Positions 31,776 to 61,830 of a stretch of DNA of 64,000 nucleotides are shown in pieces. The DNA comes from a virus (lineage: Duplodnaviria; Caudoviricetes), in the IMG/VR virus record IMGVR_UViG_3300031992_000042, positions 32,001-96,000 of that record. One strand, written 5' to 3'. A program made the translations under genes and the position numbers. The notes under the pieces were generated by a model, which had not been told where the DNA came from, searched no databases, and saw nothing but the letters and a program-made list of their open reading frames with translations. Each line of letters begins with the position of its first letter. Positions within the stretch are counted from its first letter, which is position 1.

Positions 31776-32009
31776 ATGTCAAAGTTTCTCACTATTCTCA
31801 GATCCGTAGTTAATAATACTGCGGAGAACAGCGTTAAGTCAAGTCTGAAAAAGCTTGGCTTCAATGTCACAAACAAAGATGCCATTCGACACGAAATCAA
31901 GCGTCTTGATGCCGAAGCTATCGATCTTATTGGTGATAACGATGCGTACTATGCCAACCATAAAGCCTGTTGGAATCTTACCAGCCTTTTGCTTGGGGAG
32001 GTGAAGTAA
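31776..32009 (+). CDS. Early hypothetical protein
   Basis: AAAGGAG RBS. Confidence 0.55.
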   Translation: MSKFLTILRSVVNNTAENSVKSSLKKLGFNVTNKDAIRHEIKRLDAEAIDLIGDNDAYYANHKACWNLTSLLLGEVK

Positions 32010-32990: not shown

Positions 32991-35414
32991 ATGAAAATGA
33001 TCCAGAAGCTAAACCTTATCGAAAATAAGGTTGACACCATCTCTCTGTTCACGTCAGCGTTCACAGACAAACTCGATGCTATGAGCATCGATCCCAAAGA
33101 CGCAATCGTCAAGATTTGCGCAGAGTGCCCTAAGAACGATGAAGCAGAAGCTATTGTCAAGGCTACACTTGCGAACTATTGCGCCGAAGGTTATCTCCTC
33201 GGAGAGAACATTTACGATGCATTTTGCGCTGGTGCTAGCGATGCTCGTAAAGCTACAGCTACTTGGCTTCGGCACGATCTCGTTCCTGAACTTGGCAAGT
33301 GGGCTATGTGTGGGTTGAACACCAAGAACATGAAACTCGCTATTAACAAGTACATGGCATACATCGGATTGCTGTTCTCTGCAAGCAAGCCTTTCGTCGA
33401 TGTTTTCGGCAAGAAGATTGACATTCGTCGTGTCGCTGTTATCAAAGATACAGATGTTGTCGTTAACGCAGTTGCAGATCTTGTGACGATGGAATCTGTG
33501 TCTCGTAAGGTTAATCGCGAGATGGTTATCAATGCATTTGATGGATGTGGAATCCATCGCTATGAACTTACAAACGGCGAAGCTTGCACTTTAAGAGACG
33601 CTTGGATGAAGATCTGCAGTTTCCCTGTAAAGTGGAGTAAACTGTTTGGTTTCTGCTGCGACCGTGGCATCAAAGCTACGTTTGTAGACTTCTGGGGTAA
33701 TGAGATCGCTCTGAAAGACGTGGATCTTATTATCACGGAGTCTTGCTTCAAAACAATTAAACTGTATGAATCTTGGGAGCAGTATTGCAGCGCTCACGAA
33801 GCTCTTGGACATGAAATCCGTGTCTGCGTACGGGAGCACGCTCCGAAGCTGAAGGGACTTCCTTATCAGCAAGGTCAGACTCTGATGGGTAACGAAGACG
33901 ACGCAATGTCCTTCGCTATGCATGCCAAGAAAACGGTGTACAAGTATCATGACATAGCTGGCGCACCGAAACTCCTCCGTGGCGCTCATCAGCAGGCTGC
34001 AAAGATGTATCCTGCGCTGATGACTGAAGGTCATACTAAACGGGCAATGCAGGAAATGTACACAACCAAACGTAACGATATGCTCGGCGGACGTATCCCT
34101 GAGCTTGGTTACAATGCGTTTCTCGCTCCTGATCCGGTTGCATTTGCAGAGCATCTGTTCGGACTGGAAATCAAAGGCTTCCTGAAAGCAGGAGAATGCT
34201 ATTGCTCGAACTGCAAGGAAGGTCTCGTTGATGTGACTCGGTCTCCGCACCTGGACAACGCACATGTCCTTCTGAACAACGTGACTGAATGCCCGCTGGC
34301 AGAAGGTCCTACGATGTTCATCAACATCTTCGACACAACTACTATTCAGCTTCGTGCTGACTATGATGGCGATCATGTATGGTACAGCCAAGACGAACAT
34401 CTGCTTCGACTGGTTGAAGAAACCTACGAAAAGCTGAACAATATTCCTGTTGATTGGGATGTTGCTAAAACAGATAAAGTCCAGATCACCAAGTCTGGAG
34501 TTGCGAACTTCATCATCAACCTGATCCACGGATCTGAAATCGGCTTGTATGCCGATGCTCTGACTAAGATGTGGAATCAAGCTTACGATCAGGACGTCTG
34601 TGATTGGTTAACTTATGCAGCTAACGTTCTTATCGATGCTGCAAAGCATGCGACTGTGAAGATTAAGAAACCTGATGCGGTTGTCGAACTGAACAAGGTT
34701 TCTCTTCCGCTGTTTGCAATGTATGCCAAAGCGGATGCTGACCGTCCTGTCGGTGACTATTGGCTGAAAGAGCGCAAAGTCATGACTCGTCGCGGAGAAG
34801 AAGTAAATCTGCCTCCCCGTTGTGCTTATTCTGGATCTTTCTTGGATATGTATTCTAAGAAGGTGCAAGAGAACGTGACTGAAACGCTGACAGTCGAAGG
34901 ACTGGATAACGAAATCTTCGACGTCACCAAGATGATGTTCGACGCGCATCGCAAGATCGGCAAACTGTCTGGTCTGTCCAAAAAGGGCGTTTACAACGAA
35001 CAGACTGGCAAGTTCAACGACTGTGGTCTCTTCCAAGAGATTGCCTTTCGGCACAGCACCGAATGGAACAAACTGGTAGGAGAAACTTCCTTCTTTGCTC
35101 ATCGCCGTGAGTGGGAAGAAGAAGTTGCGAAAGCTGCCCGCAAGGAGATCATCGACTGGGCTCGTGCTCAGTACGAAAATACTTCTGACATCTCCGATGA
35201 ACGCATTGAAGATGCTTGCTATGACATAATTGTCCGTAACATTTACGGTACAAAGATGAGTGATGGCATGGACACTGTAATCAAACAGGCGTTCTGGAGA
35301 ATCTATGGAGATAAGGCTGTGAAGGCTCTGAAGCAGAACCTGAACGAGTCTATCCCGGACTTCGATGACGAAGAGTTTGAAGAGCTCTTCGATGTAAGTG
35401 ACTGCGATTGCTAA
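32991..35414 (+). CDS. Single-chain two-barrel RNA polymerase (YonO-like), copy 1
   Basis: AFDGCG...LR, VTRSPHL, catalytic ADYDGD, IDAAKH; AGGAGG RBS. Confidence 0.85.
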   Translation: MKMIQKLNLIENKVDTISLFTSAFTDKLDAMSIDPKDAIVKICAECPKNDEAEAIVKATLANYCAEGYLLGENIYDAFCAGASDARKATATWLRHDLVPELGKWAMCGLNTKNMKLAINKYMAYIGLLFSASKPFVDVFGKKIDIRRVAVIKDTDVVVNAVADLVTMESVSRKVNREMVINAFDGCGIHRYELTNGEACTLRDAWMKICSFPVKWSKLFGFCCDRGIKATFVDFWGNEIALKDVDLIITESCFKTIKLYESWEQYCSAHEALGHEIRVCVREHAPKLKGLPYQQGQTLMGNEDDAMSFAMHAKKTVYKYHDIAGAPKLLRGAHQQAAKMYPALMTEGHTKRAMQEMYTTKRNDMLGGRIPELGYNAFLAPDPVAFAEHLFGLEIKGFLKAGECYCSNCKEGLVDVTRSPHLDNAHVLLNNVTECPLAEGPTMFINIFDTTTIQLRADYDGDHVWYSQDEHLLRLVEETYEKLNNIPVDWDVAKTDKVQITKSGVANFIINLIHGSEIGLYADALTKMWNQAYDQDVCDWLTYAANVLIDAAKHATVKIKKPDAVVELNKVSLPLFAMYAKADADRPVGDYWLKERKVMTRRGEEVNLPPRCAYSGSFLDMYSKKVQENVTETLTVEGLDNEIFDVTKMMFDAHRKIGKLSGLSKKGVYNEQTGKFNDCGLFQEIAFRHSTEWNKLVGETSFFAHRREWEEEVAKAARKEIIDWARAQYENTSDISDERIEDACYDIIVRNIYGTKMSDGMDTVIKQAFWRIYGDKAVKALKQNLNESIPDFDDEEFEELFDVSDCDC

Positions 35415-51637: not shown

Positions 51638-52166
51638 ATGGTATGTATGAGAAATGGATATAAAATGCTCTTTATGCCAGAACATCATCGTGCAGATATA
51701 ACAGGATGTGTTTATGAACATGTTATTGTCGCAGAACAAAAAATAGGACGAGAATTAAAAGATGAAGAAGTAGTCCATCATATTGATGAAAATAGAAGTA
51801 ATAACTCACCAGAAAATTTAATGGTTTTTGCAAATACAGCAGAACATAGTGCTTATCATGCCACACATGAGGCATATCAGATTGATAATATTTGGTATGC
51901 ATCAAGAAAAAGAAAGCCAAAAGAATGTAAAATTTGTGGCAAAATGTTTATTCCTAAATATAAAAATATAAATTATTGTTCGCATAAATGTGCACAAAAA
52001 GCTAATAGAAAATTACCAGATATCGACCAAGTTGTAAATGTACTTCGAAAAAAACAACGGCAATATGAGTGCTGTCAGCAGAATTTTTAATGTTACTCCT
52101 AATGCAATTGTAAGAATACTTAAAAGAAATAATTTGCCATATCATAGTAATGATTATGCAAATTAA
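51638..52166 (+). CDS. HNH homing endonuclease; C-terminal HTH displaced by an apparent +1 frameshift in an A7 run (52048-52054)
   Basis: VYEH..VAEQKIGR.L...EVVHHIDENRSNN.PENL; alternative frame NGNMSAVSRIFNVTPNAIVRILKR. Confidence 0.75.
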
Positions 52167-52373: not shown

Positions 52374-52744
52374 CTTGCTCTCTTAATGGGATACAGAGAG
52401 CGTTTGTACCTCCTTTCAGGTTGAATAAACATTGCTCCGATGTTTACAGTTGCCGCTGGTTTAGTAGGAGCGCTTTTTGCCAACCGCAAGCGGTTGGCTT
52501 TATACCGTGAATCCTATAACTAATTTACAAGTCTTAACCTGTTACATTGATTATAGGATATTTTTTTATGCCCTGACACGTAAGTTCTTAATGAATGGCT
52601 CGTCTCCATTCGGGGTAAACTGCATAACTCACAGAAAAGTGTGAAGCACTGCGAAGAGTTTGGATAGCATCTCTGGAAGTTCTCGTGCTATCCGCTGATC
52701 ATCATCTTATTTATAAGAAAATTTGATTAATGGAGGGATGAAAG

Positions 52745-53353
52745 ATGATCAAAGTTACTCTTATTAGCACCAATGGACGCAAGACCGACATGTTTGCAGA
52801 ACATCAGACTCCGCGTGAAGTATTTGAATACTTCGATGTTGATTATTCCGTCGCGACAAACACTATTGATGGTGTCAGGATTGGTATCGGTGACATGGAC
52901 AAGTCTCTGAAAGAGCTTGGCGCAGGAGCTGAATGCCGTATCTCGTCAATTGTTAAGACCGATAATGCTGCGCACATTGATCTGACTGGCGCTGCGGCTG
53001 TTCTGGTTTCCGATGTGAAACTGGAAGACTGGAAGCGTGTCGAAAAGTACGCACCGGAAGCTCTGAAAATCGTCGATGAAGAAGGCGATGTTGTCTTCAA
53101 GGTTATGACTTGTTGCTGCACTGGTTCTGTTAATGAAAACGGAGTGTGTTTCGGCACATACACCAACGAAGGCGGTCTTGCAACTGTGACAGTTCTGATG
53201 GACGATGAAGTAGAAGATCGTCTTCAGGCAATTAAAGATGTTGCTGGGCAGGCTCTGCTGGATCTGAATGATATTGAAAAGGATATTCCTCAGATTCTGA
53301 AGGACATTGAAGAGAAAGAAGCGGAGATTGAAAAGCTGATTGTAGCTAAGTAA
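52745..53353 (+). CDS. Ubiquitin-like (beta-grasp) domain fused to a C-terminal domain
   Basis: N-terminal ~75 aa have a beta-grasp pattern (IKVTL...TPREVF...IDG...DKSL.ELG....I..IVK.DNA); first gene of the E2-JAB-E1 cluster. Confidence 0.65.
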   Translation: MIKVTLISTNGRKTDMFAEHQTPREVFEYFDVDYSVATNTIDGVRIGIGDMDKSLKELGAGAECRISSIVKTDNAAHIDLTGAAAVLVSDVKLEDWKRVEKYAPEALKIVDEEGDVVFKVMTCCCTGSVNENGVCFGTYTNEGGLATVTVLMDDEVEDRLQAIKDVAGQALLDLNDIEKDIPQILKDIEEKEAEIEKLIVAK

Positions 53354-53366
53354 TCTCCGATACATA

Positions 53367-53398
53367 GGGGCTGAGGTTAAACTCAGCCCCTTTTTTTA
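53367..53398 (+). terminator. Intrinsic terminator between the Ubl and E2 genes
   Basis: GGGGCTGAG / CTCAGCCCC stem followed by T8. Confidence 0.85.
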
Positions 53399-53427
53399 AA
53401 AATTATAAGGAGATTAAAAGTACAAAA

Positions 53428-54846
53428 ATGTTTAGAGAACATATTGAAAAACCAATTGATCCTATTCCGCAGGTTTACGCTGACAAAATTCAGCGCCTGT
53501 ATAACGAACCTGATTATAGTTTAACCTCTCTTGGTATTGCACTTCTTAAATCACGTATTGAAAATTATGACGGTATTACTGGTGTTTATTATAGCTACGA
53601 CAATAAAGTAAATGCATTTAAGGACTTTGTTAATCGAGTAAATTCTGTCGATACTCATCCTTTGTATTGCTATTATATATATAGTACAGATAACGATGTT
53701 TCAGATATTATAAATGAAAATCTGTCTGAATTTAAAGAAAGAAAAAATATTTCTGCATTCATTAAAGAAAAGTCCGACAACGAATGCACTGTTTTATATC
53801 ATGAAACAAAGAATGCAGTAGGTATCTTTGTTAATTCAAGAGATTTTCGACTGTATCATCTTCTGATGTCATTCGTTTCTTTGTATTATCCTTCTTTGTT
53901 TGTAGAAAAGAAGATGACAGAAGAAGACTATACAATTGTTAAATCATTATCTAATAAAGAAAAAGATAAGTTTTATACAAGTGTTCAGAACGTATTAAAG
54001 CCTTTCACGATTGAATTTAGAAGGCTTCAACTTAGTTCTTTAATGAAAGATATTCATGATGTAAAGATTAACAATGCTTTGAACAATGTAAATAATCTGA
54101 GAAGTAGTGCAAATTCTATCGAAGAACAGCTTGGACGTGTTATCGCACAGTTAAAGGATGCTATTGTACTTTATGAAGGTATGAAAGCTACTGAAAATTA
54201 TGATGCTCCTGAAGAAGAATTGGTAGAATATCTTTCAAATAATGCCGATATTCATGGTCTTGATATTAGAGATCATCATTTATATTTCTCTGTTACAACA
54301 TTGCTGAACAATTTTAATCAGCAAGCATGGGATACGTTTAGCAATCGTGGGAATATTTATGACGGCGAATATAGCGCAAATTTGCTTGACGTATTCAAGA
54401 AAAGAGAAAACAGAAAGATCATTCTTGATGCTATCTTCAGTGAAGACCCGAAACTGTTTGTGCGAATGGCTGGAAATTATATTATCAATCTTGATCAGTG
54501 TAGAGTATCTACCAGTTCTGGATATGATTATGAAAATGTCGATCCTATATTTAAAGATTATATGCCGAATCCGCATTTGAAAATCTTCGAATGTCTAGGC
54601 GGATATAGAGACCGAATTATGCCCGCGTTAAGAGATCGTAATTATATTTCAGCTATTGAAATTTGTATTGCTTCAGCAGGATCTATTAATCTTGATGAAG
54701 TTACCCAAACATTCAGACCATTCTTAGGATGGATTCTGTCTAGTACAAATAAGATTATGCAAACTCAGGATGGAACTGCCATGACACCTGAAGAGGCACT
54801 TGTATGGTTAATTGATAATAAGGAGAAAGATAATGCGACCGATTAA
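53428..54846 (+). CDS. Prokaryotic E2-like conjugating enzyme (C-terminal) with a coiled coil
   Basis: PNPHL....CLG catalytic pattern, then S.N..E; operon context. Confidence 0.65.
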   Translation: MFREHIEKPIDPIPQVYADKIQRLYNEPDYSLTSLGIALLKSRIENYDGITGVYYSYDNKVNAFKDFVNRVNSVDTHPLYCYYIYSTDNDVSDIINENLSEFKERKNISAFIKEKSDNECTVLYHETKNAVGIFVNSRDFRLYHLLMSFVSLYYPSLFVEKKMTEEDYTIVKSLSNKEKDKFYTSVQNVLKPFTIEFRRLQLSSLMKDIHDVKINNALNNVNNLRSSANSIEEQLGRVIAQLKDAIVLYEGMKATENYDAPEEELVEYLSNNADIHGLDIRDHHLYFSVTTLLNNFNQQAWDTFSNRGNIYDGEYSANLLDVFKKRENRKIILDAIFSEDPKLFVRMAGNYIINLDQCRVSTSSGYDYENVDPIFKDYMPNPHLKIFECLGGYRDRIMPALRDRNYISAIEICIASAGSINLDEVTQTFRPFLGWILSSTNKIMQTQDGTAMTPEEALVWLIDNKEKDNATD

Positions 54847-55657
54847 TCTGTCGAATGAGGCAATAGAAAAATTATACGGTGAATTTCTTGAAAAATTCAA
54901 GAATGAAATAGCAAATTACGGTTTTAACGGCGGTTCTTCGATGACAATTAAAACTAATTTCGAAGAAGTTGCTAAAGAAAAGGTTATTATTAGATATACA
55001 CAGGAAGCGTTCTTGCGTATGCAAGCGTTGGTAGATTTCTTTGATTCTGAAGTTGCATGGTATGGGCTTTGTGAACGGCTCGGAGAAAAAGAATTTAGAG
55101 TGTATGACGTTAAGGTTTGTAAGCAAGAAGTTACAGGAGCTAAAGTAGATACAAGCGATGAAGACACTTTAGAATTCTTCTGCAGTCTAACTGATGATGA
55201 AGCTGAACATTTGCATTTTCAGGCTCATAGTCATGTGAAAATGTCTACTGGAGCATCAGGTACGGATATTCAGAATCAGCAGGATGTTGTAAAGAATATG
55301 GGTAAGACTGGTTATTATATTTTCCAGATTTGGAACAAAAATAACGATATTAATACTTATCTGTATGATTTAGATAATAATGTTTTCTATGATCGAAAAG
55401 ACGTAATGATCGTGATCGAAGATAGCCTTGGAGATCTGGATGACTTTATTGCATCTATTGCTGATTGTGTTGTAGAAAAGAAAACATATCCATATCAGTA
55501 TAGTGGAAGTGGCTATGCTGGAAATTACTATAATAAATCCGTAGAAACGAAAACTCCAAAAAAAACAAAAGAAAACGAAGAAGATGACTACGACACGGTC
55601 TATCTAGGAGAATATTATGATGGTATTCATGGATATTATGGAAGGAGCGATTGGTAA
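54833..55657 (+). CDS. JAB/JAMM metallopeptidase (deubiquitinase-like)
   Basis: EVAW...HSHVKMSTGASGTD matches E...HxH-x7-S-x2-D; AAGGAG RBS before MRPIN. Confidence 0.85.
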   Translation: MRPINLSNEAIEKLYGEFLEKFKNEIANYGFNGGSSMTIKTNFEEVAKEKVIIRYTQEAFLRMQALVDFFDSEVAWYGLCERLGEKEFRVYDVKVCKQEVTGAKVDTSDEDTLEFFCSLTDDEAEHLHFQAHSHVKMSTGASGTDIQNQQDVVKNMGKTGYYIFQIWNKNNDINTYLYDLDNNVFYDRKDVMIVIEDSLGDLDDFIASIADCVVEKKTYPYQYSGSGYAGNYYNKSVETKTPKKTKENEEDDYDTVYLGEYYDGIHGYYGRSDW

Positions 55658-56329
55658 TTGAATTTATCAAAAAGCTTTGAGTTTTTTAATCCTGAAGTGT
55701 GTATAGATACTATTCATATTATCGGCTGCGGTTCAGTTGGTTCAACCGTAGCCGAACTTCTTGCTAGGTTTGGTTTAAAAAATGTTAAACTTTACGATTT
55801 CGACTTTGTAGAAGAGCATAATTTGGCTAACCAAATGTTTACAACAGAGAACTTGTATAAACCAAAGGTTGAAGGCGTATATGACCGATGGGTTTCTATC
55901 AATCCTGAAGCCGCTAAAACAATTAAATTATATGGTGACGGTTGGACAGGACAAAAATTAAACGGTTATGTATTTCTGTGTGTAGATAACATTGAACTTC
56001 GCAAGAAGATCGTAGAAGAAAATAAGTATAATCTGAACATTAAAGCAATGTTTGACTTTAGGACGAGTTTAGATACAGCGCAGCACTATGCAGCAGACTG
56101 GTCTAAGCCTAAAAGTATTGAAGCGTTGCTTGATACAATGGATTTTACTCATGCAGAAGCTGAGAAGAATACTCCAATGAGTGCTTGTAAAGTTTCTTTG
56201 TGTGTAATGCCAACTGTTTGGTCTGTGGCAATGGCTGGTGTAGTAAATTTTGTAAATTTCGTTAAAGAAGGCAAATTAGAACAGGCTGTTATTACAAGAC
56301 CATTTGCATTTGATACTCTTATTTGTTAA
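55658..56329 (+). CDS. E1/ThiF-family activating enzyme
   Basis: IIGCGSVGS, DFDFVEEHNLANQ, KPKVE, CVDN..R, candidate catalytic Cys in SAC. Confidence 0.9.
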   Translation: MNLSKSFEFFNPEVCIDTIHIIGCGSVGSTVAELLARFGLKNVKLYDFDFVEEHNLANQMFTTENLYKPKVEGVYDRWVSINPEAAKTIKLYGDGWTGQKLNGYVFLCVDNIELRKKIVEENKYNLNIKAMFDFRTSLDTAQHYAADWSKPKSIEALLDTMDFTHAEAEKNTPMSACKVSLCVMPTVWSVAMAGVVNFVNFVKEGKLEQAVITRPFAFDTLIC

Positions 56330-56330
56330 T

Positions 56331-56850
56331 AAAGTCCATCAACTTCGGTTGGACTGTTTATGTTATAAATAGTAACGCTTTGCCCGGTAGGAGACGACGG
56401 GCCAAATGCCCAGACGGCTGGAGGTGCTGCACTGCTTACTGCTGAAAGAGGCAAATCAAATTAGAAAACCTATAAAATAACTAATTTACACCTATTCAAT
56501 TGAAGAAATTCACTTGAATCAACCATAAAGTCGCCTGGGAAAAGAAGACTGAATCTTAATTTAGTTTATAAACAAAAGAGTATTAAAAATATCATATAAA
56601 GACCTTCAACTTATGTTGGACAATTTATGTTATAAGTTGTAACTCTTTGCCGGGGAATAGTGAAACGACGCGGGCATGTCTGAAGAACATTCCACTCCCG
56701 AAATCATCGTAGAACAAAATGAACTGCTACTATACAAACTGAAAATTAAAATATTCAGTATTAACAGAACCATTAAGATAAATAGACCAATACGACGGAC
56801 GTCAAGAAACTCCCTGGGATCTCCTAATTTAGTTTATATGATACAAGAAA
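56331..56850 (+). ncRNA. Two tandem ~270-nt units with conserved ends upstream of the RT (putative msr-msd-like RNAs)
   Basis: Both units share TCAACTT..GTTGGAC..TTTATGTTATAA.T.GTAAC.CTTTGCC.GG, ACGACG, CCTGGGA and TAATTTAGTTTATA; middles are divergent. Confidence 0.6.
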
Positions 56851-56861
56851 AGGAAGTAAAA

Positions 56862-58004
56862 ATGATTTATATTACAACAATGCAGCATAGGAAGCCAAGG
56901 CAATTATCTTGGGAAGATGTCATTATGGAAAAAGAAATTTTTAATGATTTTACTAATGACAAGTCTTCATCTACTGCAACAATTACAAGAAAATACGAAG
57001 AAGTAAAAGAAGAAGTTCTTAACAGAATTAACGTAGATGCTATGATTAGATGGCTAAAACAGTTTAATGATTCGAATAAAGAACTGTTTGAAGCAGATCG
57101 TAAGTCTCTGTATTCGTCGTTTAAGATTCCGAAAACGACTGGTGGATTCAGGCAAATTGATGCTCCTTGTGAGAAATTGCAAGACGAATTACAACGATTG
57201 GTACATTTCATTGGGGATGATTGCGGTGTGCTGTATCATACTGCTGCGTTCGCCTATGTAAAAGGCAGAAGTATTGTTGACTGCATAAGGAAACATCAGA
57301 AGAATGAATCTATGTGGTTTCTGAAAACAGACTTTAGTGGGTTTTTTCCAAATACTACTTTGAATTTTACAATGAAAATGTTGTCGATGGTATTTCCACT
57401 GTCTGAAGTATGTAAAAGAGAAGATGGATATAAAGAATTAGAAAAAGCAATCAGCCTTGGATTCTTGAACGGTGGACTTCCTCAAGGAACTGTGTTGTCT
57501 CCGATGCTTACAAACATTTTTATGATTCCGATTGATCATAAATTGTTTAATGAATTGGCGGATCGACACATTGTTTATACACGATACGCTGATGATATTC
57601 ATATTTCAGCTCAGGAAAAATTTCCTTGGCAAGAAATTGTTAAATTGATTGAAGATACGCTAAAAGAATTTAATGCGCCTTGGGTAATTAAGAAAGAAAA
57701 GACACATTTTGGTAGTAGAAAAGGTCGCAACTGGTCATTAGGATTAATGCTGAACAGTGATAATAATATAACTGTTGGATGGAAGAAGAAACAATATTTC
57801 AAGGCTGCGCTATGTTCGTTTATTCTTGATACAAAGAATGGCAAACATTGGGATATTGGAGATGTTCAACATCTTCGTGGTCAATTGTCCTATTATACAA
57901 TGGTTGAAAAAGATTATTTTAATAGCATTATAAAACAGCAAAATAAGAAATGGAATGTAAATGTAAACGATATGTTTAAAGCATATCTCAATGGAACTGT
58001 TTGA
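56862..58004 (+). CDS. Retron-like reverse transcriptase (380 aa)
   Basis: F.IPK..GG.R.I.AP, H..AFAY..GRS, KTDF..FF, LPQG..LSP, YTRYADD, KEKT; AAGGAAG RBS before MIYIT. Confidence 0.85.
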   Translation: MIYITTMQHRKPRQLSWEDVIMEKEIFNDFTNDKSSSTATITRKYEEVKEEVLNRINVDAMIRWLKQFNDSNKELFEADRKSLYSSFKIPKTTGGFRQIDAPCEKLQDELQRLVHFIGDDCGVLYHTAAFAYVKGRSIVDCIRKHQKNESMWFLKTDFSGFFPNTTLNFTMKMLSMVFPLSEVCKREDGYKELEKAISLGFLNGGLPQGTVLSPMLTNIFMIPIDHKLFNELADRHIVYTRYADDIHISAQEKFPWQEIVKLIEDTLKEFNAPWVIKKEKTHFGSRKGRNWSLGLMLNSDNNITVGWKKKQYFKAALCSFILDTKNGKHWDIGDVQHLRGQLSYYTMVEKDYFNSIIKQQNKKWNVNVNDMFKAYLNGTV

Positions 58005-58710: not shown

Positions 58711-58992
58711 AATAAAATGAAAGCACCATATAAAGACCTGCATCATATGACGATACTGGTGCTGCAGCAAGTTCACTCGTATTCTTTAAACAAACAGGAT
58801 GTAAGAATGCCCCATGTTGATTTAGAGACCACCAGATACGAGACTTATTGCTGTTGGAGCTGTTTATTATTACGGGTTGGGTTCGTATACCGACATAAAC
58901 AGCTCCTATTTTTTATTACAGAATTAGTAAATCTATCCTTTTGGATTAAATATACGTATCTTAAAAACAACAAAATGAAAGGGGGCCGCGAG

Positions 58993-61830
58993 ATGTCTGT
59001 AAAGACATACTTGCAAGAACAGATTCGTCTTGTATCTTTGTTAAGTAAAGACTTATACACAGATGAAGAAATGATTCTGTACAAAAAAATAATCGATCAG
59101 AAAAATATCCTAGATCTGATGGATGAGAAAGGAGCAGAAAAAGAAGAACGCAAAGCTGTAATCAACGAGAAAAATAAACTAAAAACACAGCTTGATAAGC
59201 TTATTCTTTCTCATGCAGATACGCCAAGAACTGTGAACTTAAAGTCTGTCATCTATTATCCCAAAGATGCAGACTATCCTTTTCCCGAAGGAGTAACTTA
59301 TCGAAGTTTAAAAACAAATAAAAAAATAGCTGAGTTTTGTTGCGAATTATCCCGCGCAATGGGACTTGAAAATTTAGACTGTACTCTTGATTTAATTGTA
59401 ATCAAATGGAAAAACATAGAGATTTTAAGACAACTAGTAGTTAATGGATTTTATATGCCAATTCTGAATAAAGATGGCACAGTAGAAAATAGACACTATC
59501 ATTTTTATACAGCCAGCAGCGGTCAGTTAAGGCGTGATAAGTTCATGGCAATATCTGACAGCACATGGAATAAAATTCATAATAAACTTGAATGCGGTAT
59601 TACTTGGGATGTTATCAACGCAAAAGGCGGGATAAACTCAAATAAGTTAAGTGCTTATGATGCGCTTCAAAATTCTGCAACTGAAGTATGGGAAGATTTT
59701 AATATAGATTCTGTAATTGTAGTCGATGATTATGAAGGCGAAGTTACTGATAGAATGATTTATATTAAACCTGATTATACGTTTGAAAAAGGAATACGTA
59801 CAGTAAAGATAACACATACAGACGGATGTGGAATGATGCTCCCTGAAATATCTGATTCGAATTTTATGATCAGAATACCGTATGGAAAAGGCTTATTAAT
59901 AGTATTTGACTTTATAAGATTCTGCAAAGAACATAATGTAGAACCTATAGTAACTGATATATATGGCAAACAATGGCATCTAATAAACGATAATATTAAA
60001 ATAATTCTGTTTAAAAGTATGTTTAAACTTTGGAAATATTTTAATAACTGGCAAGAGTATAAAGATGAATTCAAGAAGAACGAATGCCATTGCGGAAAAA
60101 CTAACTATGAAGAAGAATTCTTAGCAAATAAAACATTAAATTATCAAATGATAGATACGTTAACAGATTTTACGGATGAAGAAATTAAACAGTTTACAGA
60201 AAAAGAACATGAACGTATCGTTAAGCTCACAAAAGATAAAGATGCAATGCTTGACGTGTTGAAAGCAAATGAAAAAAGTGAGCAACCATATAAGGTTGCT
60301 CTTAAAATTTATCCAGAACTTTTACGTGAAGCTTATGCTCGACAATCTTTAATTGATATTCGTAAGCGAATGTTATTGGATGCTAAATCTGGAAAAATAA
60401 GGAGTTTAAATAAACGTTTATTTGCTTGTCCAGATCTATATGGCGTTTGTGAATGGCTGTTTTTACATGATGAACATCCTAAAGGATTACTAAAAAACGG
60501 AGAAGTTGCATGTAAAATATTTAGACGGCATGAAAAAGTAGACGTGCTTCGAAGTCCACATTTAGCGATGGAACATGGCGTACGAAATATCGTACAGAAT
60601 CAAAAAGTCTATGATTGGTTCTGTACAAATGGATTATATAGCTCGTTGCATGATTTATTAAGCAGATTGTTGCAATGCGACTGGGACGGGGATCAGCTGA
60701 ATGTTGTAGCCGATCCTTTATTTGTCGAAATTGCAGAAAGAAACATCAAGAAATATGACGTTGTACCGTTGTTTTACGAGATGGACAAGGCTCCGGCTGA
60801 AATAATAGACAGTAATACTATGTTCAACGCTTTAAAAAGAGCTCATGACTATTCTGCTGGAGAAATAACAAGTATAGGCGAGATATCTAATATGTTGACT
60901 CGTCTTTGGAATAAAGAAAATCCAGATAGAGATGTTGCTAATCTGCTTACAATGTTCAACAATTTAGTGATTGACGCAGCTAAGAACGGAAAAATAAACC
61001 ATTATAAGAATTATCCAAAGATAGCGAAAAGAATTGGCAAAGCTACCGGAGGTAAAAATGGTCGCATGCCTTACTGGTTTCAATTCTCAAAAAATGGCAG
61101 AAAAGATACGCCAGAAAATAGAAACCGTAAATATGCAGAACCCAATAATTCAACGATGAACCGAATATGTAAAGCATTTGACGATATTGGATATATAAAT
61201 CTAAACTATGCTGGCATTTCTCAGTTCAATTATCAAATGCTTATGTCTGCTCCATGCTATGATTCAAAACCTGAAATTTATCAGTTATTTTGCGAGCTTG
61301 ATAACTCGAATAAATCAAGTATTATTGCTTCGCAAGAAAATACTTATGCTTCAGAGAAGCAACTGATAAATAATTATAGTATAGTAGCGGAAGACATTAC
61401 AAACGAGATCATTCAAAGATATGGTTCATTGGAATATGCCTATCCATATATAGTAAAGTATCTTTTTGCAGGAGAAGGCATGGACAAATCTGCGCATAAA
61501 CAAATGTTCTGGCGTGTGTTTGGAGAAATTGCATTAAATAATCTTCGCAAGAATTTATCAGAATGTGATACGTGTAAAGATTGTTTTATAAAAATACCAG
61601 CATGGGTAGAAGACCATAACTGTATAAAAAATACAAAAGGTTTTTATGAATGCATAGACTGTCATGTTTTATGTGAACGAACTAATCCGAAGCAATGTCG
61701 TTGTACAGAATGCCAATCTGTGTATAAAACATTACAAAGACGGATAAAGCAAAGAGCCAAAAGAGAATTAAAGAAAGTAATTGAAGAACAACGTATTACG
61801 TCCTTGGGATCGTTCTTGAACAAGACGTAA
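58993..61830 (+). CDS. Single-chain two-barrel RNA polymerase (YonO-like), copy 2, with C-terminal Zn ribbons
   Basis: TASSGQLR, HTDGCGM...FMIR...KG, VLRSPHL, catalytic CDWDGD, IDAAK; C-terminal CxxC motifs. Confidence 0.9.
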   Translation: MSVKTYLQEQIRLVSLLSKDLYTDEEMILYKKIIDQKNILDLMDEKGAEKEERKAVINEKNKLKTQLDKLILSHADTPRTVNLKSVIYYPKDADYPFPEGVTYRSLKTNKKIAEFCCELSRAMGLENLDCTLDLIVIKWKNIEILRQLVVNGFYMPILNKDGTVENRHYHFYTASSGQLRRDKFMAISDSTWNKIHNKLECGITWDVINAKGGINSNKLSAYDALQNSATEVWEDFNIDSVIVVDDYEGEVTDRMIYIKPDYTFEKGIRTVKITHTDGCGMMLPEISDSNFMIRIPYGKGLLIVFDFIRFCKEHNVEPIVTDIYGKQWHLINDNIKIILFKSMFKLWKYFNNWQEYKDEFKKNECHCGKTNYEEEFLANKTLNYQMIDTLTDFTDEEIKQFTEKEHERIVKLTKDKDAMLDVLKANEKSEQPYKVALKIYPELLREAYARQSLIDIRKRMLLDAKSGKIRSLNKRLFACPDLYGVCEWLFLHDEHPKGLLKNGEVACKIFRRHEKVDVLRSPHLAMEHGVRNIVQNQKVYDWFCTNGLYSSLHDLLSRLLQCDWDGDQLNVVADPLFVEIAERNIKKYDVVPLFYEMDKAPAEIIDSNTMFNALKRAHDYSAGEITSIGEISNMLTRLWNKENPDRDVANLLTMFNNLVIDAAKNGKINHYKNYPKIAKRIGKATGGKNGRMPYWFQFSKNGRKDTPENRNRKYAEPNNSTMNRICKAFDDIGYINLNYAGISQFNYQMLMSAPCYDSKPEIYQLFCELDNSNKSSIIASQENTYASEKQLINNYSIVAEDITNEIIQRYGSLEYAYPYIVKYLFAGEGMDKSAHKQMFWRVFGEIALNNLRKNLSECDTCKDCFIKIPAWVEDHNCIKNTKGFYECIDCHVLCERTNPKQCRCTECQSVYKTLQRRIKQRAKRELKKVIEEQRITSLGSFLNKT

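Follow-up and report, generated by a model that had tools for sequence, protein, structure and literature searches.

Analysis of a 64,000-nucleotide (nt) stretch of viral DNA (the window: positions 32,001 to 96,000 of IMG/VR virus record IMGVR_UViG_3300031992_000042; Duplodnaviria; Caudoviricetes) supports the presence, on a phage, of a gene cassette with the parts of a ubiquitin-like (Ubl) protein conjugation pathway. The four genes – gA (52745-53353, 202 amino acids), gB, gC and gD – are consecutive, share one orientation and encode, respectively, a beta-grasp modifier fused to a second domain (the C-domain), a candidate E2, a JAB/JAMM protease and a ThiF/E1-type enzyme (Table 1). That a phage should carry such a pathway had been proposed from the letters of the window alone (the sequence-only reading), and fold and motif evidence for each of the four parts upholds the proposal at the level of the cassette. 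We think it fairly likely that the products operate as a relay, from E1 to E2-like protein, that attaches an alanine-ended tag to targets, with the JAB protease both maturing the tag and reversing tagging.

Residues 1-75 of gA are modeled by AlphaFold2 (AF2) as an N-terminal ubiquitin-like beta-grasp: the elements follow the beta-beta-alpha-beta-beta order within the length of such a domain (about 70-80 residues), and Foldseek and VIA searches return matches to SUMO, ubiquitin (Ub), ISG15 and BilA. The tail of the domain, SSIVK-x-DNAA, is invariant in the family, and gA alone carries the K-x-D-N-A motif within the 105.7-kb genome. Neither Gly nor Gly-Gly terminates the tag: fused and unfused forms share the K-x-D-N-A tail, and their last 10 residues are devoid of glycine. 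The sequence-only reading had described just such a protein (a beta-grasp N-terminus lacking Gly-Gly, ending near IVKTDNA and fused to ~125 further residues), and its description holds on each count.

The position at which the tag ends is marked by related loci. Ninety-five were gathered from the neighborhoods of distant gB relatives, from a tag scan of IMG/VR and from one GenBank record; every locus was found through Ubl or gB, and the conservation counts given here cover block-carrying phages. Sixteen have a fused Ubl-C-domain gene, as in the window. In about 75 the two are separate genes, arranged in the order C-domain gene, 75-amino-acid Ubl gene, gB, gC, gD and a reverse transcriptase (RT) gene. 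The free-standing tag stops at K-x-D-N-A (deviating ends are DNAA in three, DNALAA in one, and KTAAA in one diverged copy), and the upstream C-domain gene, of ~130-150 codons, begins M-A-K or M-S, a start that corresponds to gA Ala76. Given that the genes stand in a permuted order, a sequencing artefact in a fused gene cannot account for the unfused form. The unfused tags came from this sampling of neighborhoods: a search for shorter relatives of gA gave only two fragments. Since the free-standing tags share the minimal end DNA, the working C-terminus is taken to be Ala75, and the fused gA of the window would thus need a cut between Ala75 and Ala76, for which the gC JAB protein is presumably the natural candidate. 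The C-terminus so placed lies right after the last strand, free in the 75-residue products and exposed by the predicted cleavage in gA. Maturation at a non-glycine end after DNA, as put forward in the sequence-only reading, thereby gains strong backing from natural tags that stop exactly at this residue.

Judged from its occurrence as a separate gene in most relatives, the C-domain is a conserved partner of the tag. Nothing usable emerged when its relatives were sought in Pfam, PHROGs and the ESM Atlas, and structure searches with gA were uninformative on this point because the Ubl domain filled every match list; comparisons with hhalign gave no hidden homology between C-domain and Ubl, C-domain and gB, or Ubl and gB. 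Conjugation of the tag onto the N-terminal Ala or Ser of the C-domain is a weak proposition, since some C-domains start M-K. On the gB tree the fused and unfused states imply four changes by parsimony, only one of them forced by supported branches; repeated fusion or fission is not demonstrable from this tree.

The protease signature in gC is complete. The E...H-x-H-x7-S-x2-D zinc and catalytic motif (E80, H139-S-H141, S149, D152) is at least 95% conserved in 75 orthologues, and a profile of 27 orthologues matches the proteasomal deubiquitinase Rpn11 (E = 2.6e-4) over a span that includes the catalytic Glu and the HSH...S..D motif. PADLOC JAB models also match (E = 1.2e-4 and 1.6e-3). There was no match to gC in Pfam or NCBIfam, nor to the single sequence in PDB. 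The perfect JAMM motif noted at the outset is thus conserved across orthologues and aligned to a characterized family. The last ~75 residues of gC (55430-55657) form a low-complexity tail rich in Tyr, Gly and acidic residues, and it is mainly here that orthologues, which range from 254 to 358 amino acids, vary in length.

The identification of gD as a ThiF/E1 enzyme, likewise anticipated, stands on a curated family match (Pfam PF00899, ThiF: 65.3 bits against a cut-off of 28.1; E = 5.9e-18) together with the GxGxxG nucleotide loop. Invariant positions comprise this loop (G23-C-G25-x-x-G28), D47, D49, N55, Q59, K70, D110, R115 and S175-A-C177; Asp110 aligns with the Asp of the MoeB TDN. When a profile of 20 gD orthologues was compared with known proteins, Uba5 ranked top (2e-15), with Uba1, MoeB, MccB and Cap2 also found (structures 1e-10), and the PADLOC E1-E2 models match gD with values down to 1.7e-14. 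Cys177 is the obvious candidate for a thioester. Counted from the domain start, it stands about as far along as C548 does in the E1 domain of Cap2 (374-600); the alignments do not extend this far.

The case for gB is of a different kind. The AF2 model (a predicted local distance difference test score, pLDDT, of 91) comprises an N-terminal alpha/beta domain (residues 1-175), a single helix of 76 residues (180-255) and a C-terminal domain (258-472) in which the elements run: helix, two strands, helical insert, two strands, the P-N-P-H loop, Cys389, and three or four helices. We take this to be the order of a UBC fold. The spacing of eight from Asn to Cys in P380-N381-x7-C389-L390 is that of the classical E2 motif HPN-x7-C-L. 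Across 101-112 family members of 22-51% identity the only residues without variation are N381, H383, C389 and A409, and P382 and G391 vary little: the PNPH....CLG motif seen in the single sequence is real, and an invariant Cys stands eight residues after the Asn of a PN motif. In the distant relative L100 (L100:3648-5123, MT835544.1) the Asn is replaced by Gln (P-Q-P-H-x5-C), with His and Cys kept. The N-terminal domain (53428-53950) holds its own near-invariant polar residues (D29, R43, H144 and E167, across members of 22-51% identity), and their conservation points to another site, for binding or catalysis, in addition to that of Cys389.

Database searches with gB returned little. The single sequence had no match in Pfam, NCBIfam, PHROG or PADLOC, including the UQ_con and Prok-E2 profiles; 101 family members scanned against Pfam at E up to 1 gave no recurrent family, and PDB sequences compared with the gB profile gave only coiled-coil noise. 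The sole profile-type lead is an ESM Atlas cluster matching gB (score 0.86) in which 11% of members carry Prok-E2_D; the Prok-E2_D model itself has no match in the phage genome. Foldseek found nothing in PDB below E 0.09, a second structure search of PDB (VIA) gave mostly coiled-coil matches to the long helix, and in BFVD only uncharacterized metagenomic phage proteins were matched. A search for related loci with the single gB sequence found none; tblastn of gB yielded one distant uncultured GenBank record (MT835544.1, L100; gB 21.5% identical). The E2 assignment of the sequence-only reading is therefore only partly sustained: motif and predicted topology agree with it, but no profile match does and the fold matches are weak, and the C-terminal domain is best termed a candidate E2. 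The family to which gB belongs is absent from Pfam and from PDB sequences. It is nevertheless widespread and almost uniformly ~470-490 amino acids long: with E limited to 1e-3, gB alone has at least 1,714 representative clusters (50% identity), and with 1e-30 as the limit it has 628.

Immediately 3' of gA lies a hairpin with a 10-bp stem and 7 GC pairs (53366-53391) followed by seven T, and next come a ribosome-binding site and gB. The gC gene overlaps gB, and the TTG start of gD directly abuts the gC stop codon, a junction that among relatives is most often a 4-nt overlap; given these overlaps and abutments, the layout is a single gene for the modifier, then a terminator, then the genes of the three enzymes, which are translationally coupled. 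Readthrough in frame from gC to gD (the TTG follows directly on a TAA stop) was considered and rejected, since other loci mostly show the 4-nt overlap or are out of frame. The strong terminator reported from the window is a feature of the family: a GC-rich hairpin of at least 7 bp, no more than 100 nt 3' of the modifier gene, is present in 42 of 58 distinct relatives (33 of these with a T-rich tail), and a comparable hairpin in 8 of 272 control windows inside gB. Relatives with the hairpin display 34 different hairpin sequences. Because the hairpin is kept after the modifier gene, production of modifier in excess over the enzymes appears to be a conserved design.

Table 1. Coordinates (window positions) of the cassette and the adjoining reverse transcriptase gene.
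Feature	Position	Strand	Basis
gA residues 1-75, ubiquitin-like beta-grasp modifier ending K71-T-D-N-A75	52745..52969	+	AF2 model, Foldseek/VIA, unfused orthologues
gA residues 76-202, C-domain: beta-rich domain, then 40-residue C-terminal helix	52970..53353	+	separate upstream gene in ~75 loci
Intrinsic terminator-like hairpin + T7, between modifier gene and enzyme genes	53366..53398	+	sequence; hairpin at same place in relatives
gB, 472 amino acids, candidate E2/UBC-like C-terminal domain	53428..54846	+	AF2 model, motif
gB candidate active-site motif P380-N381-P-H383-x5-C389-L-G391	54565..54600	+	family conservation
gC, JAB/JAMM (MPN+) metalloprotease, 281 amino acids from TTG 54812 or 274 from ATG 54833	54812..55657	+	JAMM motif, PADLOC, Rpn11 profile
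gD, 223 amino acids, single-domain ThiF/E1-type adenylating enzyme	55658..56329	+	Pfam ThiF, family profile
Retron-type reverse transcriptase, downstream of gD	56676..58004	+	NCBIfam retron St85 family 7e-52, Pfam RVT_1

A scheme that accommodates these features begins with gA, made in excess ahead of the terminator as a Ubl-C-domain precursor. The gC JAMM protease would cut between Ala75 and Ala76, yielding a 75-residue beta-grasp tag ending K-x-D-N-A and a C-domain of 127 residues. gD, a small and probably homodimeric E1, would then adenylate the Ala75 carboxylate and probably receive the tag as a thioester on Cys177, from where it would be handed to Cys389 in the UBC-like domain of gB. The choice of target may fall to the long helix of gB and its N-terminal domain, perhaps aided by the C-domain protein, and gC may also reverse tagging. 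Individual steps have precedents: the BubCD JAB protein cuts the Ubl fusion BubAB (PMC11601596), a JAB cut in lambda TAPI is predicted (PMC1779556), and CdnD of E. cloacae, which ends GRFA, was seen linked to adenosine monophosphate (AMP) in Cap2 (10.1101/2022.03.31.486616), showing that an E1-type enzyme can adenylate a terminal alanine. Conjugates would be simple to recognize. Trypsin cuts after Lys71, and those of the window tag should leave a T-D-N-A remnant, calculated at ~+401.15 Da, on the modified lysine, which makes target finding by mass spectrometry straightforward.

Several observations weigh against this scheme. Throughout the gD family Asn58 occupies the place of the Arg in the NLxRQ / NMNRL stretch of MoeB/Uba5, which from the alignments looks to be a real departure. 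Cys177 is not alignable to a known E1 catalytic cysteine, the alignments stopping near residue 120. The JAB gene is retained in lineages whose tag needs no trimming; because it is kept there we infer a second role for gC as deconjugase, which the retention fits but does not prove. We know of no beta-grasp modifier that ends in Ala. As to purpose, we assume that the cassette acts in phage-host or phage-phage conflict, and its role may be one of host takeover or counter-defense.

The cassette is also part of something larger. RT follows gD in all 79 loci with enough downstream sequence (gaps of 34-1536 nt), the distant L100 included. In 13 diverged representative loci most block genes are common to 10-12 of the other 12, compared with 0-4 for flanking open reading frames (ORFs) on the same strand; L094, a locus on a long branch, departs from this pattern, its Ubl, gB and RT being common to 6, 5 and 1 other loci. 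Since block genes are conserved and flanks vary, C-domain, Ubl, gB, gC, gD and RT form an inherited unit and, on this comparative evidence, probably a functional one. The operon of four genes in the sequence-only reading therefore needs amending: its four parts are present, but the conserved unit includes the C-domain partner and RT as well.

The cassette might alternatively be the effector arm of a retron: with the chemistry unchanged, it would give the adjoining phage retron its output or regulate it, and would not be a free-standing tagger. The tag might, for example, be attached to or removed from a complex of RT and multicopy single-stranded DNA (msDNA), or a guarded protein, so that tagging follows the state of the reverse-transcribed DNA. 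The constancy of RT and the contrast between block and flanks speak for this arrangement. Nevertheless, the loci were sampled through Ubl or gB and may represent one phage lineage with inherited gene order, the terminator-like hairpin and non-coding gaps split the transcription units, none of the known retron types employs a Ubl cascade, and nothing ties the proteins physically: we regard a retron arm as possible though doubtful. We are just as tentative about its boldest form, in which the five proteins of the Ubl cascade would work together with the retron-type RT and its non-coding RNAs as one machine, whose output or control is the covalent tagging of proteins with an alanine-ended modifier. 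Such a machine would be the first link of reverse-transcribed DNA to ubiquitin-like conjugation, and it would lie on the virus side of the conflict.

Two relatives carry further genes near the block. In L011 a 68-amino-acid gene with a Pfam AcrIC5 (anti-CRISPR) match (L011:1892-2098) lies ~2.5 kb upstream of the cassette; the match hints that the neighborhood of the cassette holds counter-defense genes. In L012 a gene of the Thg1-like (tRNA-His guanylyltransferase) family directly follows RT (L012:6680-7459).

Conflict between phages offers another reading: a Bil-like exclusion system borne on a phage would, in a co-infected cell, tag a structural protein of a competitor or mark virions, so that the cassette would serve inter-phage warfare and not host takeover. 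The four-part gene set is that of Bil (PMC11601596), and conflict genes lie nearby (the adjoining RT, the AcrIC5-like gene of L011). Yet gD is a single domain of 223 residues where BilD has IAD-AAD-CYS, the last residue of the tag is Ala, gB cannot be recognized as a BilB relative, and the block, in the block-carrying phages sampled, looks conserved over a wide phage lineage, unlike a patchy accessory defense gene; we consider this reading unlikely. Least probable is a sulfur-carrier or other non-conjugating pathway, in which gD would adenylate a ThiS/MoaD-like carrier, gC would trim it as Mec+ and QbsD trim theirs, and the gB cysteine would do other chemistry, for example transferring persulfide in the modification of tRNA, DNA or a cofactor. 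Trios of JAB, E1 and Ubl are known in that setting (PMC1779556), in NCBIfam gD matches short ThiF proteins best, the phage has many tRNA genes, and the Thg1-like gene of L012 would suit it. However, no rhodanese, cysteine desulfurase or sulfur-insertion enzyme was found in the block, the motif and predicted topology of gB fit E2, and Uba5 and Uba1, both of which activate Ubls, top the matches of the gD family profile. The sulfur carriers that are known have a Gly-Gly end, unlike this tag with its Asp-Asn-Ala. With a non-glycine tail, no sulfur enzymes and an E2-like motif, the sulfur pathway is disfavored and very improbable.

The cassette has a phage setting. The parent IMG/VR virus record comprises 105,695 bases (completeness rating 77%), and the window includes genes for a portal, a large terminase, a head-protein-like gene product and a Dit tail protein, together with an ORF of 4,682 amino acids and four tRNAs; the cassette lies in the early/accessory region. 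GenBank phages gave no blastn match to the cassette region, and among full-text literature no paper was found that describes a block of C-domain, Ubl, gB, gC, gD and RT. Just upstream of the cassette, among tRNA genes, is a free-standing HNH endonuclease gene (51638-52090; Pfam HNH_3, 3e-12). A perfect hairpin, CCAACCGC-AA-GCGGTTGG, occupies 52479-52497, ~250 nt upstream of gA and inside a 500-nt non-coding stretch 3' of tRNA-Asn. Elsewhere in the window two large paralogous proteins, of 807 (32991-35414) and 1,037 (58717-61830) amino acids, have matches (E = 2e-74 and 1e-180, respectively) to phrog_8308, a group of unknown function; the listed start of the latter is probably too far upstream, because its PHROG match begins at residue 99.

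All experimentally studied prokaryotic Ubl-conjugation systems – Cap2/Cap3 of the cyclic oligonucleotide-based antiphage signaling system (CBASS), Bil and Bub – are bacterial defenses against phages, and here a complete set is found in phages. If it is active, then E1/E2 chemistry accepts an alanine-ended beta-grasp tag, and phages gain a weapon or regulator that works by tagging proteins, with the tagging perhaps coupled to a retron. New in this analysis are the unfused forms, which by occurring naturally alongside fused ones mark the processing site and fix the C-terminus of the tag, the conserved terminator, the contrast between block and flanks, the profile links to Rpn11 and Uba5, and the size of the gB family.

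The cassette shares its parts list with BilABCD and with the Ubl/JAB/E1/E2-like operons of Iyer, Burroughs and Aravind 2006 (class 6d), and departs from them in several respects: theirs lie in a bacterial defense island and this one on a phage; gD has one adenylation domain in 223 residues, whereas the architecture of the Bil E1 is IAD-AAD-CYS (PMC11601596); their tags end in Gly and this one in Ala; gB, at 472 residues, has an added N-terminal domain and a 76-residue helix, with no Prok-E2/UQ_con match; and in the cassette a C-domain partner is conserved and a retron-type RT is attached. A parallel for gA exists in type I Bub: there the Ubl is likewise made as a fusion, and the JAB protein encoded in the operon releases it where the beta-grasp ends (PMC11601596). 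The fusion partner in Bub is, however, the E2 (BubAB), which that of gA is not; Bub cuts after a conserved Gly and uses serine oxyesters, in contrast to the predicted cut after Ala and the conserved cysteines at the candidate sites (C177, C389) here; and among the block proteins Pfam gave no DUF6527 (BubE) protease. In type II CBASS the E1 domain of Cap2 is homologous to gD, a JAB partner is also present, and the C-terminus activated in E. cloacae ends in alanine, as does the cassette tag. The substrate there is a CD-NTase and here a beta-grasp protein; Cap2 is an E2-E1 fusion and here E1 and E2-like protein are separate genes; and no CD-NTase was found among the block genes, which lack both cyclase and effector. 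Phage-encoded like the cassette are the TAPI proteins and TAPK JAB domain of lambda and T1, in which a small globular domain is fused C-terminally to a Ubl and JAB release is predicted (PMC1779556). Those systems, without E1 or E2, belong to the tail module and feature a Gly-rich linker and a terminal Gly, whereas the cassette, in the early/accessory region, has both an E1 and an E2-like protein.

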